A stretch of DNA of 64,000 nt from Bryobacterales bacterium (lineage in GTDB: Bacteria; Acidobacteriota; Terriglobia; Bryobacterales; UBA6623): positions 1,248,001 through 1,312,000 of the forward strand of contig OY729428.2 of NCBI GenBank assembly GCA_963422375.2. The letters are read 5' to 3'. Position numbers: made by a program. Of the stretch, positions 19,701-25,700 are shown piece after piece. Positions within the stretch are counted from its first letter, which is position 1. Each line of letters opens with the position of its first letter.

Positions 19701-22700
19701 CCGCCACGCCCGGAACGGACTGCCCGGACGGCGCTTCGTCACGTTCTCGGAATCGACGCGCATCGCCGAGACGCTGGTTGTGGCAACCAAGAGGGCCGGA
19801 GGGGCCCCGAAAGGGGCCGGATGGACGCGCTTCGTCAATCTCCGGCGGAATCCGGACAAGCCCATGGACGCCATGGTGATCACCCGGGCGCTTCTGGCGG
19901 AGGCCAGAGAGGGCGGAGACAAGGCCTCCGGGGTGGCGTTCGGAGACGTTCTATGGGGCGAATTGCTCCCGGTCAGGCAATGCGACCTGGAAGGGAGCCC
20001 TTGGATTTACGGAGCCTTTTGCCAGGGAAATCTCGTCAGGGTCGCGACGCGCCTCGCCAGCGAAGGTGTAGCGAAGGTGTATGGCGCATCGCGGAATGCG
20101 AAATCCGCATCCCGATCGCCCCGCCGGCCTCCTCGTGCGAACTAGGGCCGTACGAGATGCAGATCAAGAACCCCACCCAAGGGCTGTTCGATATCGTGGA
20201 CACCGACGATCCCTCTTGTACCGGCCACCCCGCTCTTCTGTGGCATCACGGCCACAAACGCATCGTGTCGCTCGCGGCTAAGGCCAACGCGAGACTTCGC
20301 GAGCGGCCCGGAATCGATCCGACCGCTCAGTCCGCAATGCTGGCGAAAGCGGGAAGATTGCAGCTTGCCCGCGAACTCGGCCATGCGCCTCAGCGCTTGG
20401 CAGCCGTGCTCACCGACGAAGCAATGCTCGGCGTGCGGTCGTGGATCACGCTCCGGCCCAAGCGGCCGGCTCCCGGCAAGGAGGAAGCCTTGTGCCTCTG
20501 GCTGAACAGCACGCCGGGCCTACTGCTGCGCATCCTCCGCTCGAATCGCCCCTATCTCGGGCGAAGCACCTTGCCGCAGGAAGTCGCTCGAGGGTTGCCC
20601 GTCATCGATGTCGACGCCTTGGCCTCGGCTCGGCTCGGGCGCACACCCTGTTCGACGATCTCATGCGCAAGCCGCTCCAAGGCTTCGCGGGGCTGGCGGA
20701 AGATCCCGTCCGCCGAGAGCTGGACCGAAGGCTGTTCGAGGAGGGCCTCGACTGCCGCGTGGGCAGCGAGATCGACCGGCTCGCCCAAGCATTGAATCGC
20801 GAACCGACGATCACGACCAGACACTGACCGCCGGCATCCGAGAGACGCGCTAGGCAGCGGCCCATCGCGCCGACCCGATTCGGACTCTCCGTTGCGGGAC
20901 CTCCCCGCGCTGACCTTACCGCCCTGCAAGAGTCCGGCGAGGCAATTCCCGGGATTTCCGGCCGAGCCCAAGCGGGCCCGCGCGGCGACCGATTGCCTGC
21001 GGTTTCCGCGCGCCAGCCCGCTATCCGCTCCGGGGTCGGACCGACATCAGGTCGAATTGTCGCTTCGGCGCAGGCGGATTTCGATGCGCCGACGCCCGGG
21101 CAAGTCCCCCGAGGTCGAGCCGTCTGAGATCGTACCGTTTCGCAGAACAATCTGCGCGCCCGAGAGAGGGATCAGACGGAATTCCCTCAACGCCTGCGAT
21201 TCGGAAAGGATCTGCGCGACCGCAGCCGCGCGCGCAAACCCGAGCCCGGCGTTGTCGGCCGCGACGAGCGCTGCATCTGGGTCCCCGTTAAGGAACGGAA
21301 GCAGCTCCTCGTCCAAGGTGCTCGCGGAAAATACGGGGCGCTCATCGGTGTGGCCGACGATCTCAACGGTGTACGTTCCGAAGCGAGCGCCGATCTTGAC
21401 AATCTCGGGAACGACCTGCGCATGGAGCAAATTCTCGAAATCCAACCTGACCTCGCTCGAATTCGTCTCGAAGGAGTACCCGTCGGCTTCGTCGAGACGA
21501 ATGATCGGCGGCCACTGGTGACCGTCGGGAGGATCTTCGCCACCCAGCGCGTCCTCGATCTGGTCTTCCAAGCCCTCGATCACCCGGTCCTGGTCCGATA
21601 CCTTGGCAAGCGCCGAGTCGAGCTGCCGTTGCAGGCTCGCCATGTCTTGCGGCGTGGGGTTCGGCTTGACGGGCGATTGCGATTCCGGCGGGGTCTCGTC
21701 TTCCGGGGGCGGTGCCGCCTGGGACGGCATGACGCTGCTGACATAGGCCAAGAGGAGGAGCAAGATCAGGAAGGTCACGACCAGCATGATCTCGAGGGCG
21801 CTGGCACCGAACGCCTGGGCGTTGCGCTGGACCCTCTTCACCGTGACTGCGTAGGAGCTGGGATGCCTGTCGAAGCCCATGGCGGCCTATTCCTCCCGAT
21901 TCAGTCGCCGCGCTCGGAGGCCCGGCACGGCCGATTCCTGTCCGCCGAGACCGGCTGAGCCATCAGAACAGAAATGTGAACAGGGCAACCGCCAGCCAGA
22001 GCGCGACCATCGCGGAGGCCGCCAGCGCCAACGACGCCAAGACCCAAGAGACGCCCCTGAAGAGCCTTCCGCCGGCGCGTTCGGCATCCTGTCTCAGGGA
22101 CGGAGTCGAGAATCTCGAGAGAGCCTGCGAGACGCTCTGCGACGCCAGCCCCTGGGCTCGCGTCGCGTCCGCTTGGGCCGTGGCGGTCTGCTCGATCTTC
22201 GTCGCGACCCGCTCGAGGCTCTCGATCGCCTGCCTGAACCGATCTTCGTCGTCCGCCACCAGTCCCGGCAGCGTCTCGACGAAGGCCTGCAGGGACTGCG
22301 CCGCGACCTTGAGCTCGGTCGCGGCACTCTGGATGCCCGCGCTCCCGAACGTCCTCTCGAGCGACTCGCTGTAGCTCACGAAGCCGTGTTCGAGTTCGCC
22401 TGCCTTTTGCCTGACGACGTCTAGCAGCCCTGCGAGGTGGTCCGTAGTCAGGTTCGCCTGCTCCCGTAGCTTCGCGGCGGCTTGGTGGAGCTGGTCGCGC
22501 ACGTCCTCGTAGGTCGAGTCGATGTCGACGACCGCGCCCTGCGACATGACGACGCGCAAGCAAAGTCCGACGATCGTCGTCCAGAGAGCCGTGCCGAAGG
22601 CCGGCAGGAACGAAATCACGACGTTCGAGACGGACGGCGCGTCCTCCCCCTGCAATTCGAGGCCGATCACGGTGAGACCGGCTGCCAGCGAGGTCGTGGT

Positions 22701-25700
22701 GAACAGGAAACCCATGTAGTAGAGGCTCTCGCCGGTCTCCTCCATCGACAGCCTCAGCGTGTCTAGGCAATATCCGCGATACCCGAACATCACGGCAGTC
22801 AGCAGGACGGGAACCAAGAACAGCCGGACGAGGATGTTGTCGATTTCGATCAGGCCGACGATCATCGAAAGCGCGAACGCCACGCCGACGATCACGAGGA
22901 AAACCAGCGTGTGCTCCTTCGCTGGGTCGCGCCCGGCATCCCTACCACTCGCCAACAGGAACCACCTCTTCCACGGTCGCGTTCTGCGAGTCGAAGAACT
23001 CCTCCCACCACTGGGTGTGCTCCGGTCCCTGTATGTCGGGGATCAGGGCGTACTCCATGCGATTCAGGAGCAGCCGCACCGCGGAGCCGCGGAAGTCGAA
23101 TCGCATCCCCCCGGAGTCGGCGAAGTCCTCGAACTCCCCGAGGCGCATCGACGGGCCCAGGTCGCCGAACGAGACCGGGACTCGCCCGGGAGTCGCGAAG
23201 TTTTGCGGCACGACGAAGTCGGACAGAACCGTCAGCGACTTCGAGGCGTGCTCGAATTCGGGGTTGCCGAGAACCAGCCGCGCCACCCCGCCGAGCGAGT
23301 CCACCAAGCTGTAGCGGTAGTCGGGACTCCAGCCCGACAGGTCCTCGACGATCTGGCGGAACGGATTGAGGAACAGTTCCCGGTACCGCTGCTCCGCGAG
23401 GCGCGGGTTGCCCGTCAGGGAGCTCACGCCCGAGCCGTCGCCGGGATTGCAGAACCTCGCCACGGGCTCGAATCGCGCGCCCGTGTCGTAGTTGACTTCG
23501 TAGATCTCGATCAAGGCACTCTTCGGCAGCGTGCCCAAGGTCCTTTCGATCTCCCTGCGGACCTGCCGAATCGTGTTGGGCGATTCCGGGACGAATTGCT
23601 TCGTCACGTAGTCGACGCGCCGGTTGCGCTCGAACAGCAGCACCTCGAGGTGAGGGATGTAGCGGGTGTTCTGCGGGCAGAGGGTCGCTTCGTCGAACGG
23701 AACGACCTGCGGACTTGTCAAGTAAATGTAGCCGAAAAAGGCCGCGCAGAGCAGCACGCAGCCCGCCATCACCCAAGTCGAGGTCCGCTCCCCCCCGGAC
23801 CGGCGAGACCGCCTTCTCCGCCTTGATCGCGCCACGCCGCTTCCCTCCCGGGTCAGAGACCCCGCTGCGACCCCTTGTAGGCAGCCAGGACCTCTCCGCA
23901 CTGCTGGGCGAGCTTGTCCCGGCTCACCCGGGCGAATTCGGCAACGACCTCCGGATCCAAGTGTTCCTCAACCGGCGGCGCGTCCGCCGCCGGCGCCTCG
24001 GGGACGACTACCGGTTCCTCTTCCGGGCAATGCACCGCCTGGACGTATTCGATCTTGGAATGAGCCTTCCGGCGCTCGCTGCGATGCTTGGCGTCCAGTT
24101 CGCGCAAGCGGCTCAGCATCGTCTCGGCGTTCGACAAGGCCGTCCTGTACTGGCTCACGTACGCGTCGATTCCGCGAATGCCGTCGTTCTGCAGCTCGGT
24201 CACCGCCTCCACGGCATCCTCGTACTGTCCCTGGTACTCCTCCTGGGACTTGGCGAGGGCCCTGGCTCGCCGGCTGTACCCCGGGTAGGGGTCCTCGCTG
24301 GTGTAGCCCTTCCACGCCCCGAGGCCGGCCGACATCATTCCCATTCCGAAGAGCATCCACGACATGAAGTCGGACACTCCGAAGTAGTCGGCGGAGAAGG
24401 CGTCCCAAGCGCGCCGCCCCGCATCCATCACCTGGTTGTAGCCTTCGCTGGACAGGAGCGCCTCGCGGTAGTGCGCCACCAGCAGATTGAACAGGACAAG
24501 GATCACGGCACCGAAGAAGATGCTGGCGAACCCGAGGCTCTTGGAGGACCAAGAGCGGGCGTTGACCAGGCGCGCCGCGTTGCCCACGCAGAAGGCGCCG
24601 CCGACGTTGATCAGCGCGATCCCCGCGGCAACGCTCCAGCCCTGCAGCAGCCCTCCTTGGGCACCGATCGCGAGCAGGCTCCCGTTGAGCGCGGTCTCGG
24701 CGATCGCCGCGAGCACCGCGATCAGCGCGTGGCGCAGCTTGCTCTCCGGGTAGTGAGGCTCGTGGCCGATGTCGTTTTCCTTGCGGTAGCGCTCGTAGTC
24801 CCCTAGCCGCGCGGTGCATTCCCTGCGCAAAGCGGCGAGCTCGGCGCCGTCCTGCTCCTTGAGGCTCGCGAGCTCGTTCAGCGATTCCGCGAGGCCCCCT
24901 TCGATTTCGGGCCGCACGTCGCGCACCTTCATCCGGTCAAGGTACGCCGAACGCTGGCGCGAGCAGTAGTCTTCCAAGTCGTGGAGATGGAGCTCGGCCG
25001 ATTCCTTGAGCGCCGCGCGCACGATCTTCGTCTCGGCAGACGGATCCGGGGACCCCAGCCTGCCTAGTTTCGCGCCGAGCAGCTCAACGTCCAGCTCCGG
25101 CCAGCCCCCGGCCTCAAGGGAAGTATCGGGGCCGGGCTCCTTGATTCTCCTCAGCAACCGGGCCGCTCCGCTAGGGATAGACGAAGTATAGCGAAGACTC
25201 GGTTTCCTAGCGTCGCGAGCGGGCCGGGGCAGAGGCCGGGCCTTCGCTATAGCGGGTTAGGTGGCCGTCGACGAGCGGCTAGGCCGCCGCGCCCTCCACG
25301 AGCCGCCGGGTAAAGTCCCGCATCCTGCGGTCCATGTCCGCCACTCTGTCGGGCTCGCGCTCCGCGAGATTGCTCTGCTCGGTCGGATCCGCGCGCAGGT
25401 CGTAGAGCTCCGGGCCCTCCTTCGTGATAGCACTGAACTCCCGCTCGCGTGCCCCGGAGTTCTCAACGAACCAGTGGTAGCTCCACTCGTCGTGCCGGAT
25501 GGAGACGCTCTGGTTGTAGTGGCAGCACACGGCTGCGTCGCGGATGCGCTCCTCCTGCCCGCGAATCAGCGGCATCAGGCTCCGGGACGTCATATGGGAC
25601 GGCCGGTCGATGCCGAGCCAGTCGAGAATCGTGGCCGTCACGTCCGTTTGCTGAGTGTAGGAGTCGACCCTCGCAACGCCGTCGCCGGACGGGTCCCGGA

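Follow-up and report, generated by a model that had tools for sequence, protein, structure and literature searches.

To our knowledge, the tasks described for motors of the stator family are flagellar rotation, import, envelope upkeep, gliding and the powering of Zorya's cytoplasmic nucleases. In the portions of the Zorya literature available to us, types I-III combine a ZorA5B2 motor with ZorC/D, ZorE or ZorF/G (PMC11946911, PMC11890865), and the accessible text of PMC11946911 assigns the pore residues to ZorA T147/S184 and ZorB D26, and gives ZorA three helices and a membrane-proximal cytoplasmic Ca-binding domain. In the available part of PMC12204202, force transduction is the role proposed for vWA proteins whose genes neighbour tolQ-like genes, while SNIPE, as outlined in the sections at hand of PMC13190303, is a membrane-tethered nuclease that recognises foreign DNA by place, during injection.

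Here we analyse a four-gene cassette in the window, i.e. the 64,000-nucleotide stretch of a Bryobacterales genome under study. The cassette encodes a hitherto undescribed relative of the ion-driven motors of bacteria. New here are the swapping of the D head, the occurrence of A and B without a motor amid housekeeping genes, and a probable exported-DNase effector. The literature searched holds no description of the cassette, and its proteins may figure in tabulated predictions of defence genes.

Results

Organization of the cassette

Four intact open reading frames occupy 21047-25157 on the minus strand as an operon of membrane-protein genes, A-B-C-D (Table 1), as the survey's finding had stated. 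Genes A and B are separated by 17 nt, B and C overlap by 14 nt, and a gap of 82 nt lies between C and D. The longest reading frame of B begins at 23901; the GTG start used here agrees with relatives. The GC contents of the cassette genes (0.635-0.666) are near the genome value of 0.674. No match to a sigma-70-type promoter was found for the cassette, nor any read joint spanning it in four sequencing runs. Outside the cassette, the operon has a decayed methyltransferase gene as convergent neighbour.

Table 1. Features of the locus, in window coordinates
Feature	Position	Strand	Description
Gene A	23853..25157	-	434 aa; inner-membrane four-helix coiled-coil protein, family unassigned
Gene B	22942..23835	-	297 aa; anchored periplasmic vWA-fold protein
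Gene C	21963..22955	-	330 aa; MotA/ExbB/TolQ-like subunit
Gene D	21047..21880	-	277 aa; MotB/ExbD-like subunit, OmpA-like head
Decayed N6-adenine DNA methyltransferase gene	19100..20830 (approximate)	+	NPPY motif; stops, frame changes

C and D form a stator-like pair

The reading of C and D as a stator-like pair is supported by profiles and by conserved residues. C has four membrane helices, the second and third joined by a loop of about 15 residues, as judged from hydropathy and alignment; T86 and T127 are invariant, and the two pore threonines are present in all 56 of 56 C proteins. Pfam MotA_ExbB (PF01618) gives matches short of its curated cut-off (E<=0.05) in 19 of the 56 C domains, the ZorA2 profile weakly matches 13 of 56, and the TolQ profile also gives a weak match. 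The helical tail of C is 186 aa here and ends in an extra hydrophobic helix present in 3/56 C proteins; across the family, tails span 68-561 aa (median 303). The ZorA match reported by the survey was reproduced (ZorA1, E 7.9e-5), but it covers residues 170-277, in the coiled tail and not in the motor domain, and was therefore rejected as proof of Zorya kinship. Zorya profiles match neither A nor B, and no ZorC-G gene occurs among 140 near neighbours. With no ZorC-G in the operon either, and with a motor A subunit of different build, the earlier label 'Zorya-type' is abandoned.

In the window's D, Glu30 at the start of the helix is followed by a linker and an OmpA-like peptidoglycan-binding head (GHTD 176-179; N210, L213, R217). 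Alignment confirms the glutamate in place of aspartate: the acidic residue is present in 49/49 D helices, as Glu in 45 and Asp in 4, and four D members have a TolR-like LIDLL helix with Asp. The D family alternates two OmpA-like heads and one that is probably TolR-like, 33 of 55 loci having a head that is not of the OmpA-like kind. For the commonest head ('CW'), two TolR periplasmic domains rank 1 and 2 among 48,161 chains, the match being weak (Z 5.3, rmsd 4.5, 86 aligned; Z 5.1, rmsd 2.8, 71 aligned); ExbD is at rank 12, tied with unrelated rows at Z 4.8. Profile search, the ESM atlas and Foldseek returned nothing for this head.

A and B

Protein A has four hydrophobic helices flanked by N- and C-terminal coiled coils, both presumably cytoplasmic, and invariant residues E154, N184, R231, D289 and P292. 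The survey's count of 1092 relatives at E<=1e-10 was reproduced. Pfam (56 members searched), NCBIfam and PADLOC hold no family for A, the ESM atlas places it in unnamed clusters only, and a PDB profile search yielded coiled-coil noise only. No longer, fused form of A was seen among 8000 scored candidates, which is weak evidence.

B consists of a basic N-terminus, a single membrane helix and a periplasmic vWA-fold domain with an invariant Cys pair. Its predicted model (pLDDT 84.3) agrees with the earlier description as a membrane-anchored vWA-like protein: the top rows of the structure search are vWA domains, led by 4fx5_A (Z 10.5, rmsd 3.2, 155 aligned), and the model has the vWA Rossmann fold. 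The MIDAS metal site of vWA domains comprises DxSxS, T and D. Its first motif reads D-x-T/S in 52/56 family members, S-D being invariant; in the window's lineage Glu-Arg-Asn replaces the metal-site Asp motif, and the complete MIDAS motif is absent. Neither an SHLS motif nor a transpore Asp was found in the B helices compared.

Exported nucleases adjoin or are fused to D in relatives

The statement that the operon has no known effector holds for the window's copy, but not for the family, in which exported nucleases adjoin D or are fused to it. Of 69 loci (176 kb), 17 have an SNase (thermonuclease) domain within 1.5 kb of the cassette, versus 3 such domains in 687 kb farther out, L046 and L048 not being counted among the 17; the enrichment, about 22-fold, is overstated because 10 of the 17 loci belong to one clade. 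The cassette-linked SNase is the sole one found in the genomes of G151 and of two close kin, G050 and G064. SNase genes flank four of the six plasmid loci viewed and, in an evenly drawn sample, accompany 4/4 full cassettes versus 0/5 loci with only A and B. Other loci hold PLD, endonuclease I, non-specific endonuclease or HNH-type genes with signal-like N-termini.

In relatives with the same four-gene order, a thermonuclease or HNH nuclease is joined to the periplasmic end of D. The 120 listed proteins include 50 D-OmpA-HNH and 7 D-OmpA-SNase fusions, and among 72 metagenome loci A-B-C is followed by a D-SNase fusion in 11 (6 of them distinct) and by an OmpA-HNH gene in 2. All D-nuclease fusions belong to the second OmpA-head lineage and not to that of the window, whose D carries no fused nuclease; SNase is lacking within 1.5 kb at 32 of the 34 loci whose D has the TolR-like head. 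None of the nuclease types searched for lies beside the window's cassette, and no SNase was found in its genome (assembly 96% complete). The window's cassette is a derived form that lacks a nuclease of its own. For the family, an exported DNase is the probable effector.

Distribution and mobility

Strong A matches in 11/150 genomes of the order, besides the genome itself, and the 24 plasmid records were both reproduced; 15 of the latter are conjugative or mobilisable. The fixed gene order reported by the survey applies to full cassettes, but A and B also stand alone, in 5/9 loci of the evenly drawn sample and in 5 of 60 other loci with downstream DNA. Such loci lie amid housekeeping genes, and no C gene was found in their genomes, except in one, which has a full cassette at another place.

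The cassette occurs in 8/28 same-genus genomes at changing sites, which together with the plasmid records supports a patchy, mobile occurrence, and several unrelated lineages exist within one genus. Copies lie within a prophage and a type III CRISPR locus, beside RM, CBASS, DRT2, Hhe-like and TerY-P genes, and next to integrases and genes for type IV secretion. Many acidobacterial copies are flanked by housekeeping genes, and many chromosomal copies have no mobility gene among their nearest neighbours. No match was found in 50,697 phage records. PADLOC defence matches show no gradient (16/140 near genes versus 18/136 genes 5-10 kb away); the comparison covers 140 of the 164 near genes and every far gene, the latter representing the same islands, not the genome-wide background. 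Besides the SNase group, none of the neighbour families called recurs in >5 loci. Eight same-genus genomes are syntenic as far as the core gene at 16595-18793, beyond which they have different genes; the right flank was not found in them, and no clean insertion site of the window's cassette emerged.

Discussion

Based on the gene content of the family, we propose that the cassette encodes an envelope motor which brings a periplasmic nuclease into position against phage or plasmid DNA entering the cell, a sequence-based reading to which we give an even chance. The four-gene module would act like Zorya turned outward. C and D, placed in the stator family by profiles and residues, would form a 5:2 ion-driven motor, with stoichiometry and ion flow presumed, in which the head of D grips the cell wall. 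A and B would make up an older module of two membrane-protein genes, separate from the motor; its polar four-helix protein and periplasmic vWA domain probably serve to sense or bind something in the periplasm. As D lies next to, or is fused with, a DNase outside the cytoplasm in many bacteria, the module may destroy invading DNA at the envelope. The effector would be an exported non-specific DNase, encoded alongside D or fused to its periplasmic end; motor activity would bring or unmask it at the points of passage of phage or conjugative DNA through the periplasm, and the host chromosome would be protected behind the inner membrane. The nuclease-less copy of the window might borrow another periplasmic nuclease, act by ion flux alone, or be in the course of being lost. 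We infer an anti-phage role for the cassette. Several observations weigh against the proposal: the lack of an SNase in the window's genome and at most TolR-head loci, the large share of one clade among the SNase loci, the confinement of the fusions to another head lineage, the flat distribution of defence-gene matches, and the housekeeping surroundings of many acidobacterial copies and of A and B alone. More tentatively, and at slightly below even likelihood, the full scheme may amount to an immune strategy that is widespread but undescribed. The motor would be proton-driven, of 5:2 build and gated by Glu, and its wall-anchored subunit would bear a DNase in the periplasm; a sensor of vWA and four-helix proteins, recruited from an older housekeeping pair, would trigger the cutting of phage or plasmid DNA ahead of its entry into the cytoplasm.

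Alternatively, the motor could assist the use of outside DNA, the exported nuclease serving nutrition or uptake processing while motor and vWA protein pull or hold the substrate. The five kinds of exported non-specific nuclease found as partners fit this, as does the commonest, TolR-like D head, import being served by ExbBD/TolQR-type motors. We regard it as unlikely, since the neighbourhoods show no recurring gene for an outer-membrane receptor, a TonB-like protein or competence, and the cassette is spread patchily on plasmids, islands and a prophage. Similarly improbable is a Tol-like envelope-maintenance or stress module, with A-B as housekeeping pair, the stator as optional energiser and the nucleases as fellow mobile cargo. 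The loci with A and B alone, mostly in genomes without C, the scarcity of SNase at TolR-head loci and the force-transducer proposal, as made in the available part of PMC12204202, point that way; cargo status leaves the fusion of two unrelated nucleases to D unexplained, and B lacks the SHLS motif and helix Asp that the same text gives for its vWA classes.

Still less probable is that plasmids, ICEs and prophages use the cassette as a selfish means of exclusion, working by the same mechanism but aimed at competing elements instead of lytic phage: the plasmid records and the copies near type IV secretion genes and integrases or inside a prophage agree with it, while the absence from phage records and the many chromosomal copies without nearby mobility genes do not. 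A true Zorya subtype, in which the C tail recruits A as a cytoplasmic or pore-forming effector, is very unlikely despite the long helical tails (median about 300 aa), the weak ZorA2 matches and the polar invariant residues in the A helices, because ZorC-G are absent, C is four-helix without a membrane-proximal cytoplasmic domain, the D head is swappable and A pairs with B even without a motor.

Should the periplasmic-nuclease motor be confirmed, a stator B subunit bearing a periplasmic DNase would represent a new job for the motor family and, going by the accessible account of SNIPE, a second way of recognising foreign DNA by location. The family's use of three different periplasmic heads on one motor, and of Glu for a nearly universal Asp, bears on stator evolution. 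As cultured hosts exist, i.e. Rhizobium johnstonii 3841 pRL11 (RL_RS31080-31100), Sphingobium fuliginis and Novosphingobium, the cassette is directly testable.

Comparison with known systems

With TolQ-TolR and ExbB-ExbD, the cassette shares the PF01618 and weak TolQ matches of C and the weak resemblance of the commonest D head to TolR, but it has no recurring TolA/TonB or outer-membrane partner, its C tail is long and the window's D head is OmpA-like. The motor-linked vWA proteins, as far as the available text of PMC12204202 describes them, are likewise periplasmic, tethered to the inner membrane and encoded beside a tolQ-like gene; B differs in having neither SHLS motif nor transpore Asp and in being accompanied by a separate D subunit, and that text mentions no nuclease, unlike what is found for the cassette family. 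SNIPE, in the sections at hand of PMC13190303, also tells foreign DNA by location through a membrane-tethered nuclease, but is one protein with no motor and another nuclease type, and A-D have no PADLOC or Pfam match to it.

Set against the available descriptions of Zorya, the likeness lies in the long, helical, cytoplasmic C tail, in the two pore hydroxyl residues of C and the acidic residue of D (ZorA T147/S184 and ZorB D26), in the N..L...R spacing of the D head where this is OmpA-like (ZorB N152/L155/R159), and in the link of a motor to a nuclease with accessory, mobile occurrence. In contrast, C is predicted from hydropathy and alignment to have four helices and a short loop instead of three helices and a Ca-binding domain, D has Glu for Asp in 45/49, a long pre-head linker and three interchangeable heads, the partners are a vWA protein and a four-helix protein without known family, and the nuclease is likely periplasmic, sometimes fused to the motor B subunit, D.

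Results

The four reading frames are intact and tightly packed on the minus strand, at the positions reported in the survey's finding, and encode A (a four-helix coiled-coil membrane protein), B (membrane-anchored, with a vWA fold), C (MotA/ExbB/TolQ-like) and D (MotB-like, with a periplasmic head). The GTG at 23835 is the most likely start codon of B, giving the basic MARSRRR N-terminus common to its relatives. In Pfam, NCBIfam and PADLOC, all four proteins stay below the curated cut-offs. Three occurrence counts previously given were reproduced: A has 1092 relatives, 150 further genomes of the order yield 11 strong matches, and there are 24 plasmid records. 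The locus set combines 13 regions from order genomes with 56 loci from one species-genome scan, less one duplicate (68 in total), plus the window, and is biased, as the scan used a single peptide pattern. A is present in 68/68 loci, B in 64 and C in 55; eight of the loci without C stop at a contig edge before it, and in the other five C is missing despite 2 kb or more of downstream DNA. Wherever all four genes occur, their order is A-B-C-D. An even sample of 400 Pseudomonadota genomes contained A in eight genomes, at nine loci.

C and D constitute a stator-type pair. The membrane domain alone matches MotA_ExbB in 19 and ZorA2 in 13 of the 56 C proteins (E<=0.05), with neither profile matching that of the window at this threshold, and TolQ reaches only E 0.67 against the window's C in a PDB search. 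T86 and T127 of C (window numbering) are invariant (56/56), and the D helix starts with an acidic residue in 49/49 proteins (Glu in 45, Asp in four); the Zorya equivalents are, in the accessible part of PMC11946911, ZorA T147 and S184, which contact ZorB D26. The reported ZorA hit on C exists (ZorA1, E 7.9e-5), but is confined to the coiled tail (residues 170-277) and is ruled out as evidence for the motor domain.

The head of D is swapped between loci. That of the window is OmpA-like and retains the N..L...R spacing of the wall-binding residues of ZorB; across 55 loci, 18 heads are of this type, one is a second OmpA-like form and 33 contain cysteines, the remaining three D being cut or frame-shifted. 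When the cysteine head was modelled (pLDDT 91), two TolR periplasmic domains ranked first of 48,161 chains (Z 5.3 and 5.1), scores that tie with unrelated folds, and Foldseek returned no match; the predicted likeness to TolR is thus suggestive only. In copies from Rokubacteria/Methylomirabilota (L068, L070, L071, L081 and L086), the helix is TolR-like, with LIDLL and its Asp, and the neighbouring genes include a kinase-like and an NMT1-like one.

B is predicted to adopt a vWA fold (pLDDT 84.3; Z 10.5, rmsd 3.2, 155 residues), the D-x-T/S metal motif being kept in 52/56 proteins and replaced by E-R-N in the window's lineage. The accessible text of PMC12204202 describes two motor-linked vWA classes, marked by an SHLS motif or an Asp in the helix; the B helix has neither. 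The four helices of A bear invariant polar residues, and the searches assigned the protein to no known family. The window's copy is a derived one, with an altered vWA site and a short C tail that has an extra end helix, this helix being seen in 3/56 C proteins. Four of the nine even-sample loci are full cassettes (two near-identical), and five, situated among housekeeping genes, hold only A and B; the four genomes concerned yielded no C. Since A and B occur there without C, we regard them as an independent module to which the motor is an add-on, and this two-gene module itself represents an uncharacterised family. Motorless modules lie among housekeeping genes in alphaproteobacteria at L118-L122, L038, L083 and L087; genome G365 has two copies.

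Clustering of all frames near cassettes yielded one recurrent family, the Pfam thermonuclease. With a clean profile, its domain lies within 1.5 kb of the cassette in 17 of 69 rows (176,335 bases), compared to three matches in 687,053 bases of farther DNA, and most matches combine a hydrophobic N-terminal segment with the catalytic motifs. By head of D, a nearby thermonuclease accompanies 12/19 loci with the window's OmpA head, 2/34 with the cysteine head, 0/1 with the second OmpA head and 3/15 without D at the locus. Ten of the 17 rows belong to one clade and the rest to several others; the gene may precede or follow the cassette, on either strand, with about 32-49% identity between groups. 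It follows D in two of the four closest kin of the window, as the only one found in each genome, and none was found in the other two or in the window's genome. Four of the six plasmid loci viewed have one. Alternative nucleases elsewhere (PLD nuclease, endonuclease I, non-specific endonuclease, HNH protein) each have a signal-like N-terminal start. In the even sample, a nuclease accompanies 4/4 full cassettes, and 0/5 A+B-only loci match any of five nuclease profiles. Excalibur domains recur near cassettes at L025, L046, L048, L049, L055, L069 and L114; some stand alone, others accompany SH3-like regions or are fused to nucleases.

Fusion to D itself was also detected. At L116, an even-sample full cassette, D ends in an HNH domain, and a search with this protein gave 225 matches; among the 120 listed, at least 50 carry HNH domain PF07510 (of 50, the helix motif is present in 48 and the catalytic pattern in 44) and at least seven a thermonuclease (helix motif in six). 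The cassette family accounts for 34/72 metagenome loci, with A-B-C followed by a D-thermonuclease fusion at 11/72 (six distinct at 90% identity) and by an OmpA-HNH gene at 2/72, one gene being split. As 12/13 checked fusions have no second membrane helix between the D helix and the nuclease, the latter is placed on the same side as the wall-binding head. The second catalytic Arg is kept, by eye, in 5/6 distinct fused thermonucleases, and every fusion belongs to the second OmpA-head lineage.

The cassette is mobile, occurring in 8/28 same-genus genomes, with a flanking gene present in 28/30 and other genes occupying the window's cassette site in eight relatives. B falls into at least four unrelated lineages in the genus (quick tree, deep branches open), and three broken cassettes were found among close copies. 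Cassettes adjoin restriction-modification, Mrr-like, CBASS, DRT2, TerY-P, Hhe-like and type III CRISPR genes, integrases, type IV secretion genes and a prophage, and many also have housekeeping genes beside them. PADLOC matches number 16/140 within 2.5 kb of the cassette vs 18/136 beyond 5 kb, so there is no local gradient.

Coordinates of features in the window and at related loci
Feature	Location	Strand	Remarks
Flanking gene	16595-18793		
Decayed adenine methyltransferase gene (restriction-modification-like)	window 19100-20830	+	NPPY motif kept; converges on D
Second decayed methyltransferase copy	G000:C2 about 1112842-1114951		Window's own genome
aroC-like (chorismate synthase) gene start, degenerate partial duplicate	window 31342-32426 vs 33680-34921		72% DNA identity; 2.3 kb before intact copy
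Prophage-like stretch, start	window 60903-64000	+	HNH, small and large terminase-like, portal-like frames, judged from translations
Divergent A+B pair, then ABC three-component (DUF2326/CTD10) gene	L033:7205-12286		Genome G030; full cassette elsewhere in it
Cassette between cas6 and NE0113/cas10 genes	L060:8917-18510		Type III CRISPR locus; D appears frame-shifted
Cassette and thermonuclease between phage lysozyme and P2-like tail genes	L061:7084-18513		Novosphingobium; prophage cargo position
DUF4041 protein after thermonuclease	L091:13938-15413		Sinorhizobium fredii NXT3
PBP1A-family gene preceding A	L090:6601-8481		pRL11

Discussion

We propose, at about even chances for the reading as a whole, the following mechanism. 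C and D would form a C5D2 motor that would contact A-B, a periplasmic nuclease would act on DNA in transit, and the role of the cassette would be defensive. That this machinery instead serves the scavenging or uptake of DNA we consider unlikely, and to the same degree a function in envelope upkeep. Exclusion of other elements appears slightly less probable still. Least probable is a true Zorya subtype, as the survey had suggested; the cassette has neither the Zorya partner genes nor the ZorA build.

Literature searches, with subscription papers and supplements outside their scope, retrieved no description of the cassette, and the stator diversity survey PMC12505986, in its accessible part, mentions neither vWA nor nuclease. 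We class the architecture as categorically new, built on a known motor, with a predicted function. The link of motor to nuclease is common to Zorya, from whose types, as presented in the accessible part of PMC11890865, the cassette differs in partner genes and A-subunit build: ZorA combines three helices with a Ca-binding cytoplasmic domain, whereas C has four helices and a short loop (accessible part of PMC11946911). With SNIPE, as far as covered by the accessible text of PMC13190303, the cassette shares the use of location.
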